Position numbers and translations under genes: made by a program
Notes under the pieces: model-generated
Told to the model about the DNA's origin: nothing
The model's database searches: none
The model's input: only the letters and a program-made list of their open reading frames with translations
In this document: positions 7,801 through 16,977 of the stretch, in pieces
Position numbering within the stretch: the first letter of the stretch is position 1
How the letters are laid out: the number at the start of each line of letters is the position of its first letter
From: Clostridia bacterium
GTDB lineage: Bacteria > Bacillota > Clostridia > Christensenellales > Aristaeellaceae
NCBI GenBank assembly: GCA_045639455.1
Contig: JAZUDA010000045.1
Location: forward strand, 1 to 27,430
Direction: 5' to 3'
DNA: 27,430 nt

Positions 7801-7837
7801 GAAAAGCCGGATGGCAGGCTCATCATCCGGCTTTTTC
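7801..7837. terminator. Bidirectional terminator between convergent CHR and WYL genes
   Basis: GAAAAGCCGGATG...CATCCGGCTTTTTC. Confidence 0.85.
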
Positions 7838-7838
7838 G

Positions 7839-8765
7839 TTATTCATTTTTCCGGAAATCCACCAGGTATTCCTCGTAACGCCTGCACCAGTAATCGAAGG
7901 ATACGTCATCCGCGGTGACCGTGACCCGGATGACATCCGCGTTCACTCGCTCCGCCTCCGTCTCCATACCGAACCAGTCAAAAACATCGTTCAGAGCGTT
8001 CTGCTTTGCGAGGAAGGTATGCTTCCTGGCGGCACCGTTGTACATGAAGGGATGGACATTCACATATTTTTGCAGATCGATGCCGTTTTCGCAACCCTCG
8101 ATTTCCGTCAGTTCCTTGGCAGGCTCCTCCGTCAGCTGAATATCCATAATCCGTTCAACACGGAAGTGGGAAATGTTGTCGTACTTGTCCACATTGCCCA
8201 GGAGGTAATACCGGCCGTTGGTGGTGAGGATATCGTAGGGATTCACCAGATATTCCCGTGGCGTGCCGTCCTCCCGGCAGCGGTAGTGAAGCTTTTTGTC
8301 GATATCATAGTTGCCGTAGTAGAAAAGCACCTTTTTCTCCCCGGCAATTGCCTCATGCAGCACATCCAGCGAGAAAAGAAACTGCGGATTGGCCGGACGC
8401 AGCTGACTGTTGTCCTGATTCGCAGCATACCAGCTGCCGCCCAGCAGAGAGACCTTTCGAATCATTTCGTCCCGCTGGGCCGCCGTAATGCCGGGTGCGG
8501 TGCGCAGGATATCCACCAGCAGGTTCAGTTCCGCCGGGCAGAAATCATGCTCGTAATACCAGCCCTTGTCAAAGCAGACCGGATACCCGGCCTCGACCAG
8601 ATCGTCCAGATTTTTCCGGATGCTTTTCCGGACGTAGGTCTTGCCCGTTTCCTTCTCCACAAGGTCGATAATATCCTGCTGGCGGACCCGATGATCCTCG
8701 TCCGTATATTTCTTGAGGATTTCCAAAATGGCATATCCTTCCTGCTTATGCGTCCCGGCTGCCAT
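7839..8765 (-). CDS. WYL-domain transcriptional regulator (N-terminal wHTH)
   Basis: Start reassigned to MAAGTHK at 8765 (RBS AGGCGGGTG). AILEILKKYTDEDH...QDIIDLVE wHTH region; WYL core YLVNPYDILTTNGRYYLLGNVDKYDNISHFRVERIMDI; C-terminal FDWFG. Confidence 0.88.
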   Translation of the reverse strand: MAAGTHKQEGYAILEILKKYTDEDHRVRQQDIIDLVEKETGKTYVRKSIRKNLDDLVEAGYPVCFDKGWYYEHDFCPAELNLLVDILRTAPGITAAQRDEMIRKVSLLGGSWYAANQDNSQLRPANPQFLFSLDVLHEAIAGEKKVLFYYGNYDIDKKLHYRCREDGTPREYLVNPYDILTTNGRYYLLGNVDKYDNISHFRVERIMDIQLTEEPAKELTEIEGCENGIDLQKYVNVHPFMYNGAARKHTFLAKQNALNDVFDWFGMETEAERVNADVIRVTVTADDVSFDYWCRRYEEYLVDFRKNE

Positions 8766-8797
8766 GACGCTCACCCGCCTTGTTATATGATGTATTA

Positions 8798-10675: not shown

Positions 10676-10704
10676 GTTGTACCATTTCCCCGCGGGTTTG
10701 TCAA
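10676..10704 (-). promoter_or_regulatory. Probable sigmaA promoter for GNAT-DMT-CsoR
   Basis: Minus strand TTGACA (overlaps the hydrolase TGA stop), 17 bp spacer, TGg-TACAAC. The -10 lacks the final T. Confidence 0.5.
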
Positions 10705-11324
10705 TTCTTCCGTTGTCCGTTCTTTTCTTCCGTCAGCCACCCGTCCAGGAACGCCATCTGCTCCGGCGTATGGAACCAGTGCTCCCCGCCCGGCATGACC
10801 CGCAGCTCCGCGCCTGTTTGCTCAGCGAAGGCGCGGACGGTATCGTAACTCTGCAGGTGATCCTTTTCGCCGTACAGGACGCAGGTCGGCGTAAGCCAGC
10901 GGTTGGGCGTATTTCTTACGCGGCACAGCACATTCCAGGACAGCTTTTCCCCGAAAGCCGTTTCAACGGTACCTTTTTCCCGCAGTTCCTGCTCCGTTAC
11001 CCCTGCCCAGCCCATCATGTCCAGAATCAGCCGCTCCATATTGACGATGGGCGATATAAAATACGCCCGCTCAACGGGCGCGTCGGAAAGCGACATCATG
11101 GCATACCAGGCGCCAATGCTGTTTGCCACCATGGTTACGGAATCATACGCCTGAAAAATTGGCGCAAAAAGGGCCGGGAATGCTTCCGCCGTTTCCAAGG
11201 GCGCGGCAGGCTCATATTCAAGCCCGATTACATCCGCGTCCGGAAACAGCGGCCGGTAGTGTTCTGCCTCACCGGCATTCCCGCCCTTTCCGTGGATATA
11301 GACAATTGCTTGTTTTCTGTTCAT
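10701..11324 (-). CDS. Alpha/beta-fold hydrolase (esterase-like)
   Basis: IVYIHGKGG oxyanion region, nucleophile motif ANSIG, YGEKD, GGEHWF catalytic His. Start placed at MNRKQ (11324); the ORF-track extension to 11372 is not needed. Confidence 0.85.
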   Translation of the reverse strand: MNRKQAIVYIHGKGGNAGEAEHYRPLFPDADVIGLEYEPAAPLETAEAFPALFAPIFQAYDSVTMVANSIGAWYAMMSLSDAPVERAYFISPIVNMERLILDMMGWAGVTEQELREKGTVETAFGEKLSWNVLCRVRNTPNRWLTPTCVLYGEKDHLQSYDTVRAFAEQTGAELRVMPGGEHWFHTPEQMAFLDGWLTEEKNGQRKN

Positions 11325-11378
11325 TTGTTCCGCGTCTTCCTGTTCTTTCTTCGCGGTATTTCCGTCCGGCAAAAAATC

Positions 11379-11588
11379 TTACTTGTCGGATTTTTCCTCG
11401 CCGGGAAACTTGTTTTCACCAATCGTGCCCGCCGCGATTTCAAGCTCGCCCGCCGCGTTGACAAAGCCCAGGTCGTCATCGGACAGCTCCGCGGCGTAAC
11501 GGTTTTCCGTTTCCGCAATCAGCTTCGCCAGGGAGGTATTTTTTTCAAACTTCTGATAATCAAACATCGCGTTCAGTTTCTTTTCCAT
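11379..11588 (-). CDS. 69-aa peptide with a double-glycine-type leader motif (ELSDDDLGFVNAAG); putative PCAT substrate or anti-sigma
   Basis: RBS AAGAAGG 7 nt before ATG 11588. E-L-S-D-D-D-L-x-x-V-x-A-A-G matches the C39 peptidase leader pattern. Directly downstream of an ECF sigma factor and a C39-containing ABC exporter. Confidence 0.8.
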   Translation of the reverse strand: MEKKLNAMFDYQKFEKNTSLAKLIAETENRYAAELSDDDLGFVNAAGELEIAAGTIGENKFPGEEKSDK

Positions 11589-11625
11589 GAAAATGCCTTC
11601 TTTCTTCAATGTGGTTTCACTGATT

Positions 11626-11652
11626 TATACGATACGAAAGGCAAAATGGTTA
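11626..11652 (-). promoter_or_regulatory. Putative ECF-sigma promoter for the peptide gene
   Basis: Minus strand TAAC-catttTgcctttcgtat(17 nt)-CGTATA, matching the AAC-N16/17-CGT pattern of Bacillota ECF sigmas. It overlaps the sigma TAA stop. Confidence 0.55.
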
Positions 11653-12138
11653 ATGCTTTTCAAAATAATCTTTCAGTTTTTTCAACGCGTTGTTCTGCAG
11701 CACCTTTACATAGGCATAGGAGATGCCCATATGCTCGGCGATTTCCTTCAAGGTTTTGCCGGAGTAGTACCGCAGAATGATAATATCCCGTTCCCGCTCA
11801 TCCAGCTTTTTGAGGCCTGATGCCAGCGTCTCCAGCGTCTCCGCGTTGCACACTTCCTCCTCAACATCGGTTCCGTCATCCCGTGTTTCCGGAATTTCCC
11901 CGAATACCTTGCGGGTGCGGAAATAGTCAATCAGTCGGTTGCGGGTAATGGTATAAATCCAGGTGGAAAGGGAGGCCTTCGTTTCGTCAAAGCTGTCGAT
12001 TTTTTCGTACACCTTGACGAATACATCCGCGGCCAGGTCCTCCGCCATCGTGGCGTTATTGATTTTCGAGCGGATATATCCGCACACCTTGCCGTAATAA
12101 TCGCTGTAGATTTTTTCCTTTTGCTCGTCGGTCATCAT
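11650..12138 (-). CDS. ECF-subfamily sigma-70 factor
   Basis: 162 aa. Region 2: AEDLAADVFVKVY, SLSTWIYTITRNRLIDYFR. Region 4: LDERERDIIILRYYSGKTLKEIAEHMGIS. RBS AAGGAGG. Confidence 0.93.
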   Translation of the reverse strand: MMTDEQKEKIYSDYYGKVCGYIRSKINNATMAEDLAADVFVKVYEKIDSFDETKASLSTWIYTITRNRLIDYFRTRKVFGEIPETRDDGTDVEEEVCNAETLETLASGLKKLDERERDIIILRYYSGKTLKEIAEHMGISYAYVKVLQNNALKKLKDYFEKH

Positions 12139-12162: not shown

Positions 12163-14358
12163 TTATGCTTCTTCCACGTCCACCCTCTGACGTTCCACCA
12201 GCTTGGCGAAGGCGCCGTTAAGGGCAATCAATTCTTCATAAGTACCGTCCTCCAGAATCTTTCCCCCGTCCAGGTAGATAATGCGATCGGCATGCTGAAT
12301 GGTGGAAAGGCGGTGGGCAATCACAATTCGCGTACACTTGAGCGCGTCAATCGCCCGGGTGATTTTCCGCTGGGTAATGTTATCCAGCGCGCTGGTGGCC
12401 TCATCAAATATCAGAATCTTCGGGCTGGGGGCAACAGCCCTGGCAATCATCAGCCGCTGCTTCTGCCCGCCGGAAATGCCGCCCTGGCCCTCGCCGATGA
12501 CCGTATGCATTCCCATCGGCATGGCACGGATATCATCCGCGACGGACGCGATTTCCGCCGCCTCCCATGCCCGCTGAAGCCCCATCTGCGGCGCGGTCAG
12601 CACGATGTTGGAATAGATGTCGCCCAGGAACAGCTTGCCGTCCTGCATCACCACGCCGATTTTTCTGCGGAGGGATTCCGGGTCGATTTTGTTGATATCC
12701 TTCTGATCGTAGGCGATTAGGCCCTTCTGCGGCGTTTCAAAGCCCAACAGCAACCGGACCAGCGTACTCTTGCCGCATCCGGTGGGGCCCACAATGGCCA
12801 GATACTCGCCCGGCTTGACCCGCAGGGAAAGGTCGTCAATCACATTGGGCATAGCCTCGTCATAGCGGAAGGAAACGTGGGTCATTTCGATTCCGCCCTG
12901 AAGCTCCGTAATATTTTCCTTCCCGTCATGCACCTCCGGCTCCGCCTCCATAATCGGCTTTGCCATTTCCAGTATCGGGCGGATATTGGCCACCGTCATC
13001 GCGATGGACACAACGGACAGAAAGGCGGACGATACCATACCGTACGCGGAATTGAACGCGTAATAATCCGCCACGCCCACACCGCTTGACAGGGCTGTAG
13101 CATAGAGGATCATTGTACCACCAAGGGAAAGCGCCATGCTGAGGGTACCGCTCAGCTTCAGGAACGCGGGCGGGTTGTAATTCAGCTGCGCCTCACGGGC
13201 ATACTGCCTTGCCCAGCGGGAGAACATCCGTTTTTCCGCGCCCGCCAGCTTGATTTTCTGTATGCCGGTGATGGTGGAATAGGTCAGGCCGCTGGTTTGG
13301 GACGCGACGTCCATCCGTTCCCGGGAAATCTTTGTCTGCAGCAGTGTCGTTGCCAGAGAAAGCGCCAGGGTGGAGGCGGTAATCAGCAAGGACGGCACCA
13401 CAAGGGAGGGTGCAAAGGCAAAAATCTGCCCGATATAAATCAGCGAGAACAGCGATGTCAGCCCCGTCATGCCGATTGTGCTGAACAGGGTGGAGCACAG
13501 CGACTGCACATAGGAGGCTCGCTGCGACAGCTCGCCCGCGGAAAAGCTGCGGAAAAAGGACGGCGGCAGACTCATCATCCGGTTCATAACCGCGGCCTGA
13601 ACGGCGATGTTCTGCTTGATGCCGATTCGGGAATTGATCAGCCCCCGGAAGGCATTGAAGCACAGGCTGCTGACGGAAAAGGCCACCATAAAGACAGCGA
13701 GAGAAATCAGCACCTGCAGGTTGCCGGAATCCAGCACATCGCTGAACAGCCAGCGGGTAAAGAGCGGGGACAGCAGGCCCAGTGCGGAAGACAGCGCCAT
13801 CAGCGTCAGGTACAGGACGATGTCCGACACGCTCAGCTGCTTCACCATGAATTTCAGCAGGTCTGCCACCTTCAGCGGCTTTTGCGGAAGCGGCTCATAA
13901 AAGCAGACTGCCTCCCGGTCCAGCAGTTTCTCGGTTTTCCGGTTCATGCGGCGCCTCTCGCCGGTTTTGAAATTAATCAGCCGGTATCCGGAAAGGTTGT
14001 CCGGAATCAGCGCGACCGCGCTGCCGTCCTCCTTCAAGGTGCCAAGCATGGCACCTACCGCGCAGCGGTACCAGCCTTTTTCCAGCGTGACGGTACGGCT
14101 TTTGATGCCGAAGGGGCGCATGCGGTATTCGATTTGCTCGTCCACCGTCTTGATCCGGTCCGGAAGCTCTTCCGACTTCGGCTTGCAATGGTAAAATTTC
14201 AATATTTCGTCGATGGCAGAGCCGGCGATTTCGTTCTGGCTCAGCGCGTCCCGCAGACGGTTCCCCATCACGGCGTTCGCAATGGAATCTATGGCGTCCG
14301 CAAAATCGGCGTTGTCGGATTCCGCACGGGTACGCAGCTGCTCGTCAAACCAACTCAT
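12163..14358 (-). CDS. NHLP-type export ABC transporter, permease/ATPase subunit with a degenerate C39-like N-terminus
   Basis: N-terminal ~150 aa lacks the QxxxxECG motif; six-TM domain; Walker A GPTGCGKST; signature ISGGQKQR; Walker B ILIFDEATSALD; IAHRLST. Confidence 0.9.
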   Translation of the reverse strand: MSWFDEQLRTRAESDNADFADAIDSIANAVMGNRLRDALSQNEIAGSAIDEILKFYHCKPKSEELPDRIKTVDEQIEYRMRPFGIKSRTVTLEKGWYRCAVGAMLGTLKEDGSAVALIPDNLSGYRLINFKTGERRRMNRKTEKLLDREAVCFYEPLPQKPLKVADLLKFMVKQLSVSDIVLYLTLMALSSALGLLSPLFTRWLFSDVLDSGNLQVLISLAVFMVAFSVSSLCFNAFRGLINSRIGIKQNIAVQAAVMNRMMSLPPSFFRSFSAGELSQRASYVQSLCSTLFSTIGMTGLTSLFSLIYIGQIFAFAPSLVVPSLLITASTLALSLATTLLQTKISRERMDVASQTSGLTYSTITGIQKIKLAGAEKRMFSRWARQYAREAQLNYNPPAFLKLSGTLSMALSLGGTMILYATALSSGVGVADYYAFNSAYGMVSSAFLSVVSIAMTVANIRPILEMAKPIMEAEPEVHDGKENITELQGGIEMTHVSFRYDEAMPNVIDDLSLRVKPGEYLAIVGPTGCGKSTLVRLLLGFETPQKGLIAYDQKDINKIDPESLRRKIGVVMQDGKLFLGDIYSNIVLTAPQMGLQRAWEAAEIASVADDIRAMPMGMHTVIGEGQGGISGGQKQRLMIARAVAPSPKILIFDEATSALDNITQRKITRAIDALKCTRIVIAHRLSTIQHADRIIYLDGGKILEDGTYEELIALNGAFAKLVERQRVDVEEA

Positions 14359-14372
14359 TCGCAGACACCTCC

Positions 14373-16544
14373 TTACTCCGCACTGACCAGTTCGCGGTAC
14401 ATTTCGCTGTTTTCCATCAGCTCCCGATGGGTTCCGCGGTCGATAATCTCGCCCTTGTCCATCACGATGATTTCATCGCAGGAACGGATGGTGGAAAGCC
14501 GGTGGGCGATAACGATGCAGGCAATGCCGCGGTCGCGGATGGCCTTCACTACGCCGTATTCCGTTTTTGCGTCCAGCGCGCTGGTGGCCTCATCCAAAAT
14601 AATCACCGTCGGGTCCTGCGCCAGGGCGCGGGCAATCTCGATTCGCTGCCGCTGGCCGCCGGAAAAGTCCTTGCCGCCCTCCGTCAGCTTATGCCGATAA
14701 CCTTTCGGCCGCTGCATGATATCCTCATGAATCTGCGCGTCCCGGGCCGCCAGGATCATTTCGAAATCCTCGATGCTGTCATCCCACATCTTGATATTAT
14801 CGGCAATCGTATCCTCAAACAGAATGATATCCTGATCCACCACCGCCACAGACCCGCGGAATACGTTTTTCGGGATCTGATTCATTTTTTTGCCGTCAAA
14901 CAAGATTTCGCCGCTCCACGGCTGATACAGCCCGGCAATCAGCTTCGCCATGGTGGATTTGCCGCAACCGGAGCCGCCTACGATGGCCACGCTTTTTCCG
15001 GGTTCGAGGCACATATTGAAATCCTTGATCAGCGGCTCCGCCAGGGGCGAATAGCCAAAGACCACGTGATTCAGTTCGATTTTTCCGGTCAGCTTGCCAT
15101 AGTCGTCCGTATCCTCGTTTTCATTAAAAACGATATCCTCCGGGTATTCCATCACGTCTTCTACCCGCTCCATCTCGGTACGCATTTCCTGCAGCGTCTG
15201 GCCGGCGGAAATCATCGTCTGGGCAGGCGACATAAAGGAGGCAAGGAAACCTTGAGACGCCATAATCATACCGATGGAGAACTCGCCCCGCATGGTCAGC
15301 CACACGCCCAGGAACAGCACCGCGTTGTTGGCAAGCATGGAGACAAACTGGGGAATCATGCCCAGATACTCATTGAGTTTCAGGAATTTCACCTGCTGCG
15401 TATTTACGCCCGCCTGATAGCCGGACCATTTTTTGAAATAGCCGTTTTCAGCACCTGACGCCTTGATGGTTTCGATCATTTCAATACCGGCTACCGTGGC
15501 GGAGGACAGCTTCGCGCTGTCACGCATGGAAACGCGGGTCACGTTAATCCGCTTCTGGGAAATATAGTTTGACACCGCAGCGTTGATAAACAAAGAGGCA
15601 AGCCCGATTACCGTCAGGAAAACGCTGTAGCGCAGCATCACCACCAGATAAAAGACCATCATCACCGAGTTCAGCAGAAGCGGCGCGAAGGTGCCGATCA
15701 GGGTGTTGGCGATAGATGCGTTCGCGCCCTGCCGCCCCTGAATATCCCCTGCCATACGCTGGGAATAGAATTTCATCGGCAGACGGAGGATTTTCCACAT
15801 GTAGGTGGCGTTGCCCACCGCTGCCATCTTGCCGTTAATGCGCAGCGAATAAACCGCCTGCAGAGCGGACATGATAATATCGATCAGGTTGAACGCGCCC
15901 AGCAAAATCAAGAAGGGCGTTATCCACTCCGGATCCGTCCCTGTCAGCAGATGGTCCAGAAAAACCCGTGAAAATCCGGGCTGGACAAACCCCATCAGCG
16001 CCGCGATGACACCTGTCAGCACCGTGAAAGCGATGGCGGTGCCCGTTCCCTTCAGACGTTTTGCCGCGAATTCCTTCATGCTCTTCGGCTTGCCGGAGGG
16101 GACAAACGCCTCCGTAGGCTCAAACTGCAGGCAGATTCCCGTAAAAGCCTCGTCAAACATTTCCATAGAAACGCTGTAGGAGCCCTTCGCCGGGTCATTC
16201 AGCCAGGCTTTCCCGCCTTTGAAGCCGTTGAGCACCACAAAGTGGTTGAAATTCCAGTGAATAATGCAGGGGAAGCTGCCGTGTTCCTTCAGCGCGTCCG
16301 GCTCATACCGGTAGCCCTTCGCCTCCAGGCCGTAGAAGCGGGCAGCCTTGAGGATGTTGCGGGCATTGGAGCCGTCTCTGGACACGCCGCAGTCCTCACG
16401 GACCTGCTCCAGCGGAATCCACTTACGATAATAGGCCAGGATCATGCAAAGGCACGCTGCGCCGCATTCCAGCGCCTCCAGCTGCATCACAACCGGAACA
16501 TTGGCTGTGCCCTTCGTCACCGGCTTTTTGATTTTCTCCGCCAT
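14373..16544 (-). CDS. NHLP-type export ABC transporter with an intact C39 peptidase (PCAT)
   Basis: VMQLEALECGAACL (Gln, catalytic Cys), HWNFNHFVV (His), NDPA (Asp); Walker A GGSGCGKST; FSGGQRQR; IILDEATSALD. Confidence 0.93.
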   Translation of the reverse strand: MAEKIKKPVTKGTANVPVVMQLEALECGAACLCMILAYYRKWIPLEQVREDCGVSRDGSNARNILKAARFYGLEAKGYRYEPDALKEHGSFPCIIHWNFNHFVVLNGFKGGKAWLNDPAKGSYSVSMEMFDEAFTGICLQFEPTEAFVPSGKPKSMKEFAAKRLKGTGTAIAFTVLTGVIAALMGFVQPGFSRVFLDHLLTGTDPEWITPFLILLGAFNLIDIIMSALQAVYSLRINGKMAAVGNATYMWKILRLPMKFYSQRMAGDIQGRQGANASIANTLIGTFAPLLLNSVMMVFYLVVMLRYSVFLTVIGLASLFINAAVSNYISQKRINVTRVSMRDSAKLSSATVAGIEMIETIKASGAENGYFKKWSGYQAGVNTQQVKFLKLNEYLGMIPQFVSMLANNAVLFLGVWLTMRGEFSIGMIMASQGFLASFMSPAQTMISAGQTLQEMRTEMERVEDVMEYPEDIVFNENEDTDDYGKLTGKIELNHVVFGYSPLAEPLIKDFNMCLEPGKSVAIVGGSGCGKSTMAKLIAGLYQPWSGEILFDGKKMNQIPKNVFRGSVAVVDQDIILFEDTIADNIKMWDDSIEDFEMILAARDAQIHEDIMQRPKGYRHKLTEGGKDFSGGQRQRIEIARALAQDPTVIILDEATSALDAKTEYGVVKAIRDRGIACIVIAHRLSTIRSCDEIIVMDKGEIIDRGTHRELMENSEMYRELVSAE

Positions 16545-16554
16545 ATCAGCAACC

Positions 16555-16977
16555 TCAATTCAAAATAAAGGATAAGGGCTTGTAGCTTCGGATAATGACC
16601 TTTCCTTCATAGAAGCCGTCGGGCAGAGCGGAATCCTCCGACAGGACACAGGCGTAGCCCATATCCTCTTTCGCGCCGATTTGCGTGATGACCGCCTCTT
16701 CCGTTTCCCCGAACCGGACGATTTGCCCCTCCCGGATGGAGGAAACATCTTCCGGCGCGATGAAGCAGACCGTGCCACCACCCTCAATGCGGACGGTGGA
16801 CGGCACGGTGCTGTCCACCTGCCCGAAGATGCCCCATACGCAGGCGCCCGCCAGCAAAACAATCACGCTGACCAGCAGCAGCCACACGCCCGGGTTGGAC
16901 ACTCGGATAAAATCATCCAGGTTTTCGGGAGACTTTACTTTATCAAGGCTTTTCTTTCGGAATATTTGTTCACTCAT
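16555..16977 (-). CDS. Miniature NHLP-system secretion (HlyD/MFP-like) accessory protein
   Basis: N-terminus IFRKKSLDKVKSPENLDDFIRVSNPGVWLLL...WGIFG and C-terminus GKVIIRSYKPLSFILN both recall NHLP secretion proteins, but the protein is only 140 aa. RBS AAGGAG. Confidence 0.78.
   Translation of the reverse strand: MSEQIFRKKSLDKVKSPENLDDFIRVSNPGVWLLLVSVIVLLAGACVWGIFGQVDSTVPSTVRIEGGGTVCFIAPEDVSSIREGQIVRFGETEEAVITQIGAKEDMGYACVLSEDSALPDGFYEGKVIIRSYKPLSFILN

Follow-up and report, generated by a model that had tools for sequence, protein, structure and literature searches.

The 69-codon open reading frame studied here lies in a window of 27,430 nucleotides (the whole stretch of DNA that was analysed). 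It is a genuine gene, far beyond chance, and its product belongs to a large un-modelled family of three-part small proteins. We propose, with a confidence that falls a little short of even, that the front domain of this peptide binds an ECF-type sigma factor as a small soluble anti-sigma factor, and that a cut after Ala45-Ala46 by the C39 peptidase of an ABC exporter would relieve the inhibition. The peptide would then be a double-glycine-type exporter substrate recruited into sigma control.

The peptide gene occupies positions 11379–11588 of the minus strand, stop codon included (ORF list and sequence). Its ATG start is at 11588–11586, its stop codon at 11379–11381, and a ribosome-binding site, GAAGG (11596–11600, minus strand), was read in the sequence 7 nt 5' of the ATG. 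The gene is the last member of a co-directional block that encodes, in this order, an HlyD-like protein, a C39 ABC protein, a second ABC protein, the sigma factor and the peptide. Three parts were distinguished in the product. Residues 1–33 (11490–11588, minus strand) form a conserved N-terminal domain, delimited by alignments and AlphaFold2, which is the proposed sigma-binding part. Residues 34–47 (11448–11489, minus strand), which read ELSDDDLGFVNAAG, are in the alignments a double-glycine-type recognition helix ending in a near-invariant Ala-Ala-Gly. The remaining 22 residues (11382–11447, minus strand) are an acidic, hydrophilic tail, presumed to be exported or discarded and set apart by composition, motifs, dN/dS and low pLDDT. 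The initial annotation had proposed this reading frame, a leader motif at residues 34–47 and a long helical leader, and all three hold: the frame lies on the minus strand and encodes 69 residues, and the leader comprises two predicted helices and, as a third, that of the cleavage motif (AlphaFold2, run on 146 family sequences, places helices at residues 2–10, 18–31 and 37–46, followed by a disordered tail). Its account of the tail needs one correction: the absence of Cys, the single Ser, the single Thr and the three Lys are right, but there are six acidic residues (five Glu and one Asp) and not five, so that the net charge is −3.

A word-indexed search retrieved 58 close homologues of the peptide, all unnamed. 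In a profile search of 1.84 billion representatives (clusters at 50% identity), 1335 clusters matched the first 47 residues at E ≤ 1e-3; at E ≤ 1e-10 there were still 786. The 150 best matches listed were all small proteins of 57–150 aa, with the domain at the N-terminus or within about 50 residues of it, and natural fusions of the domain with sigma or with other domains were not present among these 150 best representatives. One sequence (P0203) joins a sigma N-terminus to the peptide, a chimera that probably arose by deletion or misassembly. The family is present in at least 126 GTDB species. Nearly all the carriers listed belong to the Clostridia of gut and rumen (Oscillospiraceae, Acutalibacteraceae, Lachnospiraceae, Christensenellales), the lone exception being one MAG labelled Bacteroidales, and they include the cultured Hungate isolates Butyrivibrio sp. 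Su6, Butyrivibrio sp. AE2015 and Lachnospiraceae bacterium AD3010. Where copies were counted, there was about one per genome, unlike expanded cargo families, and the source genome's other double-glycine cargo genes lack the residues 1–33 domain.

Conservation is concentrated in the leader. F9, Q12 and L20 are invariant in an alignment of 86 rows (A5) and at least 90% conserved in one of 146 rows (A6); F14, N17 and I24 are at least 90% conserved in both. A45, A46 and G47 are invariant in A5, and in A6 only A45 and G47 remain so, with A46 at least 90% conserved. Residues 1–47 are about as conserved as the sigma factor (mean pairwise distance 0.47 vs 0.50), and in seven close pairs dN/dS was ~0.13 for the leader (residues 1–47) and ~0.38 for the tail. 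The initial annotation had placed the functional part in the N-terminal segment and suggested that conservation be compared before and after Ala-Ala-Gly. The comparison supports this, the leader being strongly kept and the tail variable. A chance ORF was rejected on family size and dN/dS values.

The window peptide has no Pfam or NCBIfam match at E ≤ 0.1, and 146 members compared with Pfam and NCBIfam gave only sub-threshold chance hits, for example to Topoisom_I in 23 members. Nif11-type (TIGR03798) and NHLP (TIGR03793) models were absent from the 25 most-matched families listed for these members at E ≤ 1. Similarity to known anti-sigma domains (ASD classes I–III, FlgM, NepR) was found neither in Pfam and NCBIfam nor among PDB sequences, where a profile search returned only a designed repeat protein and chance matches. 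The neighbours in a language-model atlas were unnamed clusters, with lantibiotic precursor and ComC clusters at low scores. When modelled alone by AlphaFold2, the peptide had a mean pLDDT of 68.6 and a pTM of 0.32, that is, helices without a confident fold. Such a low pTM with three helices fits a protein predicted to fold on a partner. We also modelled the two adjacent genes as a single chain, joined via X and the six upstream in-frame residues. The alignment supplied to this model consisted of 62 sigma homologues only (A4), because MAFFT placed the peptides on the sigma part (A2, A3). The peptide helices had a pLDDT of ~60–80 and the motif and tail <45, about the same as for the peptide alone, and the output, which does not list contacts, gives no readable sign of docking.

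The conserved partner gene (11650–12138, minus strand) encodes a 162-aa ECF-type sigma factor (matches to Sigma70_r2, Sigma70_r4 and TIGR02937). In 58 of the 71 species-level loci with enough flank, a sigma orthologue is found no more than 500 nt from the peptide gene: upstream, as in the window, in 23, downstream in 34 and divergent in one, with a typical gap of 40–100 nt. When 151 genomes were sampled evenly from the order of the source, the peptide turned up in four and the sigma factor in three of these four; in the fourth, the contig stops ~100 nt behind the peptide gene. The sigma factor was present only in peptide-bearing genomes of this sample (3/3). Adjacency in both orders and genome co-occurrence support the tie to one ECF-type sigma orthologue that had been suspected from the window. 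That homologues always stand behind an ECF gene is correct in part: the neighbour may lie on either side, and 13 of the 71 loci have no adjacent sigma gene. Independence from ECF sigma genes, which would speak against the tie, is weakly indicated by these 13 loci; eight of ten genomes with an orphan peptide carry a sigma orthologue elsewhere (44–68% identity).

Pairwise distances were compared by a mirror-tree approach. Those of residues 1–33 correlated best with those of the sigma factor (r = 0.76), and after controlling for the ABC nucleotide-binding domains the partial r was 0.55 for sigma and 0.57 for sigma region 4, compared with 0.07–0.37 for the exporter domains (0.24 for the N-terminal domain of the second ABC subunit, ABC2). 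This signal fits co-evolution; genetic linkage alone can also produce it. The peptide is, like an anti-sigma factor, encoded with its cognate sigma (58/71 loci, both orders) and, judging from its sigma-type promoter, co-expressed with it.

This promoter was recognized through a cross-species motif and spans 11624–11652 (minus strand), with a −35-like element TAACCA at 11652–11647, whose TAA is the stop codon of the sigma gene, and a −10-like element CGTATAAA at 11631–11624. No sigma-70-type promoter was seen upstream of the peptide gene on the minus strand. Across species, T(A/G)GCCA-N15/16-(T)CGTATAAA is found ~30–80 nt 5' of the peptide start codons, in either gene order. Where the sigma gene comes first, the −35 element and the sigma stop codon often share bases; where the peptide gene comes first, the motif stands in front of the peptide-sigma operon. 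An ECF promoter that heads the operon of its own sigma factor is the usual mark of autoregulation.

A position weight matrix was built from 34 sites, including that of the window, and applied to the source genome (1.82 Mb, 75% complete), which has a single copy each of the sigma factor, the peptide and the cassette. The window's site was the best hit in the genome (32.7 bits), being itself one of the 34 training sites. Eleven sites reached at least 20 bits, compared with zero or one in five first-order Markov shuffles. The genes behind the other sites encode several signal-peptide proteins as well as four peptides or small proteins with a double-glycine leader, and two of these four have hydrophobic cores like those of bacteriocins. 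In the loci of other species, 46 sites precede family peptides; of a further 19 sites, at least 11 stand before double-glycine cargo, with Nif11-type precursors among it. A second conserved family of long leaders (MKTKxELNALKEEV...GG) also lies behind the same motif. The motif was not found before exporter genes. Judging from the genes that do carry it, this sigma factor appears to govern what the exporter transports, and the sole regulon member common to all these loci is the family peptide.

In a gut metatranscriptome, one contig of 870 nt (~98% identity) covers the downstream hydrolase and the peptide gene and ends 43 nt short of the peptide ATG; the same run gave no contig over most of the sigma gene. 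Short pieces from other organisms match the motif-coding stretch, 11445–11489. These contigs fit transcription of the family, and prove neither transcription nor a start site.

The exporter cassette lies upstream of the sigma gene, on the same strand. Its first gene (16555–16977, minus strand) encodes a short HlyD-like adaptor of 140 aa that matches only the first 54 positions of TIGR03794 and keeps its place as the leading cassette gene in other loci. The next (14373–16544, minus strand) encodes an NHLP-type ABC1, a C39-peptidase ABC exporter that is the presumed processing enzyme; it scores above the cut-off of TIGR03796 (920 bits), matches Peptidase_C39 (E = 7.6e-33) and shows the ECG and NHFVVL...NDP motifs in its translation. 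The third (12163–14358, minus strand) encodes an NHLP-type ABC2, an exporter subunit that lacks a peptidase domain and, at 692 bits, narrowly misses the TIGR03797 cut-off of 709. A cassette lies at most 9 kb from the peptide in 21 of the 39 loci with full flanks. Five genomes that have the sigma-peptide pair and no adjacent cassette were tested, and all five have an ABC1 orthologue elsewhere (61–82% identity). In the sample of 151 genomes, exporter orthologues also occur in four further genomes that have neither sigma nor peptide, and the pair therefore looks like a regulatory add-on to a more widespread exporter. ORF clustering over 80 loci recovered as conserved neighbours only the sigma factor, the two ABC subunits, the short adaptor and, in 10 loci, a STAS protein. 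The same clustering found no conserved kinase, receptor, modifying enzyme, immunity gene or other anti-sigma candidate nearby, and the alpha/beta hydrolase and GNAT genes downstream in the window are not conserved in other loci. In some neighbourhoods (L001), a radical SAM enzyme and Nif11-type precursors were seen.

C39 domains recognize only the last ~13 residues of a leader, with hydrophobic residues at −4, −7 and −12, and the documented cleavage pairs are Gly-Gly, Gly-Ala and Gly-Ser; Ala-Ala is not among them (PMC6363468). In the window peptide, V43, L40 and L35 take positions −4, −7 and −12 only if the cut is made after Ala45-Ala46; a cut after Ala46-Gly47 puts the register off by one. 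A sigma-adjacent variant from strain AD3010 (L089) has Gly-Gly exactly at the family's Ala-Ala positions. As expected of a C39 substrate, the exporter is encoded with the precursor (ABC1 at 14373–16544).

The tails of the family vary from 7 to 50 residues (median 16), are rich in K, E, D, P and N, and contain Cys in only 6 of 85 cases; a few members have long or four-Cys tails (90 aa in P0161, four Cys in L089). Several subfamily motifs were recognized: [ED][FL]x[IMV]xxGTI[SG]xN directly after Ala-Ala-Gly, which includes the window's tail (it begins with the subclade motif E-L-E-I-A-A-G-T-I-G-E-N), WYGxDN..GxFEPGSR..W and GGITGDFIGNYA. These motifs argue for a role of the exported part in at least some subfamilies. 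The tail had been described as a variable tag, and it is variable in both sequence and length; it is not a free tag, given the subfamily motifs and a dN/dS of ~0.38, which indicates a relaxed but constrained sequence. The further remark that it is unlike cationic class II bacteriocins and a poor substrate for lanthipeptide or azole chemistry agrees with the hydrophilic and almost Cys-free character of the tails (6/85), which do not resemble bacteriocin or RiPP cores. Neither a cationic, hydrophobic or Cys/Ser/Thr-rich core nor an immunity or modifying gene, the features of class II bacteriocins and RiPPs, was found.

These observations can be assembled as follows. Residues 1–33 are conserved, dispensable for C39 and missing from other cargo, and so should serve something beyond cleavage; the sigma factor is proposed as their partner since it is the sole partner that always travels with the domain. 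Residues 1–33 would bind the sigma factor and hold it inactive, folding on binding in the manner of FlgM and NepR, and through the recognition helix the peptide would also be processed by the exporter's C39 domain. A cut there after Ala45-Ala46 would send the tail into the channel and leave a fragment of 46 residues. The fragment would end in ...Val-Asn-Ala-Ala-COOH, which resembles ClpXP tags of the ssrA/RseA/RsiW type, and its degradation by a Clp-type protease would free the sigma factor. An extra degradation step must be assumed because all the conserved residues stay in the intracellular fragment, and the invariant Ala-Ala could provide the degron. There is precedent for ssrA-like degrons on anti-sigma factors (bioRxiv 10.1101/491043), and cleaved RsiW is degraded by Clp (PMC8767453). 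With a free exporter the anti-sigma factor would be destroyed and the cargo genes would be on; with a saturated or absent exporter it would accumulate and they would be off. With the peptide gene itself under the control of the sigma factor, the circuit would amount to negative feedback that is read out through exporter capacity. The reality of the gene, its pattern of conservation, its partners, the promoter motif and the regulon are shown; that the peptide binds sigma, where it is cut, that a degron is exposed and which way the regulation runs are the steps that we infer. The complete scheme, a soluble mini anti-sigma factor with an exporter cleavage tag, whose C39 cut exposes an ssrA-like end and leads to Clp removal and capacity-set transcription, is put forward tentatively, and we would sooner doubt it than assume it. 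In our literature search, a sigma or anti-sigma factor linked to double-glycine peptides or C39 exporters was not found, and the main text of the ECF re-classification paper mentions no such context.

Several observations count against an anti-sigma role. Ala-Ala is not a documented C39 site, the peptide is without similarity to known anti-sigma domains, and the tail is not neutral (dN/dS ~0.38, subfamily motifs, long or four-Cys tails). The 13 of 71 loci without an adjacent sigma gene weigh in the same direction, as do the possible origin of the mirror-tree signal in linkage, the extra degradation step that the scheme requires, and the low pLDDT of the peptide in the single-chain model, from which no docking can be read. 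Exporters of this class normally have substrates (NHLP, Nif11) with long conserved leaders that play no part in sigma control, and the regulon itself includes a second family of conserved long leaders. These last two points lead to another explanation, which we consider quite unlikely, namely that the peptide is ordinary cargo with a long leader: residues 1–33 would serve the exporter, by binding the ABC2 N-terminal domain or the short adaptor or by keeping the precursor export-competent, and adjacency to sigma would reflect co-regulation only. Known substrates of the TIGR03796/TIGR03797 class do combine a long, conserved leader with a hypervariable core (Haft et al., 2010, as cited in PMC6363468, for NHLP-class exporters). 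Nif11-like leaders and the MKTKxELNALKEEV...GG leader occur behind the same promoter motif, some members carry cargo that looks folded (the four-Cys tail of L089, the 90-aa tail of P0161), and the exporter is encoded elsewhere in all five pair genomes that lack an adjacent cassette. However, the same genome encodes short-leader cargo without the residues 1–33 domain, so the exporter does not require this domain. In the 151-genome sample the exporter occurs without the peptide and the sigma factor does not, leader distances follow sigma better than the ABC2 N-terminal domain (partial r 0.55 vs 0.24), and a family with about one copy per genome, in which most tails are 10–20 polar residues with no obvious function, does not resemble ordinary cargo.

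If the tail matters, it might do so outside the cell. The peptide would then be the precursor of a secreted autoinducer-like signal, its tail released and exported by the C39 ABC exporter, with the sigma factor as its dedicated activator and a loop that is positive or neutral, as for the induction peptides of class II bacteriocin regulons. Purifying selection on the tail (dN/dS ~0.38) and subfamily motifs such as WYGxDN..GxFEPGSR..W are in keeping with a signal, and the tail diversity is like pherotype diversity; the layout of leader, cleavage motif and short tail is like that of ComC, BlpC and induction-factor peptides, and ComC and lantibiotic precursor clusters are among the distant look-alikes of the language-model search. 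The gene also adjoins its own regulator, behind that regulator's promoter, and family members appear in gut metatranscriptome contigs. We nevertheless regard this explanation as unlikely. No histidine kinase, RRNPP/Rgg-type receptor or membrane anti-sigma factor is conserved nearby, and because no receptor gene is, there is nothing to read a secreted signal. The tails are very polar, K/E/D/P-rich and down to 7 residues long, whereas known pheromones are amphipathic. A signal would leave the conservation of residues 1–33, which are dispensable for C39 and missing from other cargo, unexplained. That the tail is antimicrobial or modified, as in a bacteriocin or RiPP precursor, is very improbable, despite the double-glycine-type motif, the C39 exporter and the radical SAM enzyme and Nif11-type precursors of some neighbourhoods (L001). 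The window's tail of 22 aa is acidic, polar and Cys-free, only 6 of 85 tails contain Cys, and no modifying enzyme or immunity gene is conserved, nor are the downstream hydrolase and GNAT genes. A bacteriocin or RiPP core was rejected on tail composition and on the lack of enzymes.

Much mining effort goes into ABC exporters with a peptidase domain and into their double-glycine cargo (bacteriocins, RiPPs, pheromones); we know of no account of how gut Clostridia match the expression of this cargo to its export. The present work defines an un-modelled peptide family (1335 clusters), its partner sigma factor and a cross-species promoter motif of an exported-peptide regulon, and this motif is a practical tool for finding unannotated secreted peptides in the genomes of Oscillospiraceae and Lachnospiraceae. 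If the anti-sigma reading is true, the family would represent a new route of ECF control, in which the cytoplasmic peptidase of an exporter is the releasing protease. Besides type III systems, it would give a second case of transcription tied to secretion, in which an FlgM-like checkpoint has been reinvented on a peptidase-containing ABC transporter in Gram-positive gut bacteria. The family is directly testable because it is present in cultured Hungate isolates.

Among known systems, the FlgM/sigma-28 (FliA) pair offers the same proposed logic. Like the peptide, FlgM is a small soluble protein, largely unfolded and encoded with its sigma factor. The sigma factor controls the cargo genes of an export machine that also accepts the anti-sigma factor as a substrate, which couples expression to export capacity. 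The two proteins are unrelated in sequence, and the machine is a type III system there and a C39-peptidase ABC exporter here. FlgM is exported intact; of the peptide, the conserved part would remain in the cell after the cut and would have to be degraded. In the RseA/sigma-E and RsiW/sigma-W cascades, as proposed here, an ECF sigma factor is freed by site-specific cleavage of its anti-sigma factor, and the leftover fragment carries an Ala-Ala or Ala-rich tag for Clp proteases. The tag of the RseA fragment is VAA, and the −10 element CGTATA is of the sigma-W type. RseA and RsiW differ in being membrane proteins cut by site-1 and site-2 proteases upon envelope signals; the peptide is soluble, and the C39 domain is the presumed protease. 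Class II anti-sigma domains such as NepR and CnrY are helical modules of ~45–60 residues that fold on an ECF sigma factor, which makes a two-helix sigma binder of 33–47 aa realistic in size, although no sequence or profile similarity to the peptide was found.

Other systems share the build of the peptide. The Nif11 (N11P)/NHLP precursors that go with TIGR03794/03796/03797 cassettes use the same exporter class (ABC1 scores above the TIGR03796 cut-off) and have a long conserved leader that ends in a LSxxELxxVxGG-like sequence, followed by a hypervariable C-terminal part. The present family differs from them in having no match to their profiles among the most-matched families listed, a shorter leader of 47 aa, Ala-Ala-Gly instead of Gly-Gly at its end, no modifying enzyme, one copy per genome tied to a sigma factor and an adaptor of 140 aa. 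ComC, BlpC and induction-factor peptides are likewise double-glycine-type precursors of a C39 ABC transporter, encoded beside their regulator under an autoregulated promoter, and bacteriocin-like cargo is controlled in both cases. ComC and BlpC are read by a histidine kinase and a response regulator, neither of which is conserved here (80 loci), and they have short leaders and amphipathic cationic mature peptides, in contrast to the long conserved leader and polar tail of this family. In conclusion, the nearest systems in logic are FlgM/sigma-28 and the RseA and RsiW cascades, and the nearest in build are the Nif11/NHLP and ComC/BlpC-type peptides.

Outside the window, the genome that carries it contains 10 more sites matching the promoter motif TAGCCA-N15-CGTATAAA; they are found on contigs C21 (positions 2073 and 7089), C265 (7515) and C335 (2080), and on contigs C227, C22, C258, C237 and C68. 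Unannotated double-glycine-leader peptides or small proteins are encoded downstream of four of these 10 sites, two of the four having hydrophobic bacteriocin-like cores, and several sites are followed by genes for signal-peptide proteins. Together, the motif sites mark a candidate regulon of exported products. In another genome (locus L001, 16357-18310), the same motif precedes a Nif11-type precursor gene, and a radical SAM enzyme gene lies immediately downstream of that precursor gene; therefore, the regulon includes modified peptides in some species.

A second conserved long leader family was also observed, with the consensus MKTKxELNALKEEVExLxxKLxELxEDELxxVxGG and widely divergent C-terminal parts of 20-90 aa. 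Five genes with this leader are arranged in tandem behind the family peptide gene in locus L003 (10239-11814), where a sixth double-glycine peptide of the array has a leader of a different type. The window's own genome has one gene of this second family behind the promoter motif, on C21 near 2117.

Within the window, one metatranscriptome contig (10718-11545) links most of the peptide gene to the alpha/beta-hydrolase gene downstream of it (10701-11372). No terminator separates the two genes, which may share a transcript at this locus, although the hydrolase is not conserved in other loci. As for the exporter cassette, the adaptor protein (16555-16977) is only 140 aa long, and both this size and its place at the cassette head are conserved in many loci. 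In the ABC subunit that lacks a peptidase, the N-terminal stretch of about 165 aa (12163-12660) could be a substrate-binding domain.

Lachnospiraceae bacterium AD3010 encodes a sigma-adjacent family member (locus L089, 1124-1432, minus strand) in which a canonical Gly-Gly replaces the family's Ala-Ala and the 50-aa tail carries a CxxC...CxxC pattern, as well as a second, orphan family peptide (locus L061). In the metagenomic protein P0203 (126 aa), sigma-factor residues ~1-52 continue, with the reading frame kept, into the family peptide at LFDYQ; this chimera probably reflects either a deletion joining the neighbouring sigma and peptide genes or an assembly artefact.

A STAS (anti-anti-sigma-like) protein is encoded near the family peptide gene in 10 loci in all, for example in L077 (about 7826-8767) and L067 (about 1843-2142). 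These loci include ones where the usual sigma factor gene does not adjoin the peptide gene, and some of them also encode a small HATPase-like protein. The STAS and HATPase-like neighbours may hint at a partner-switching layer.
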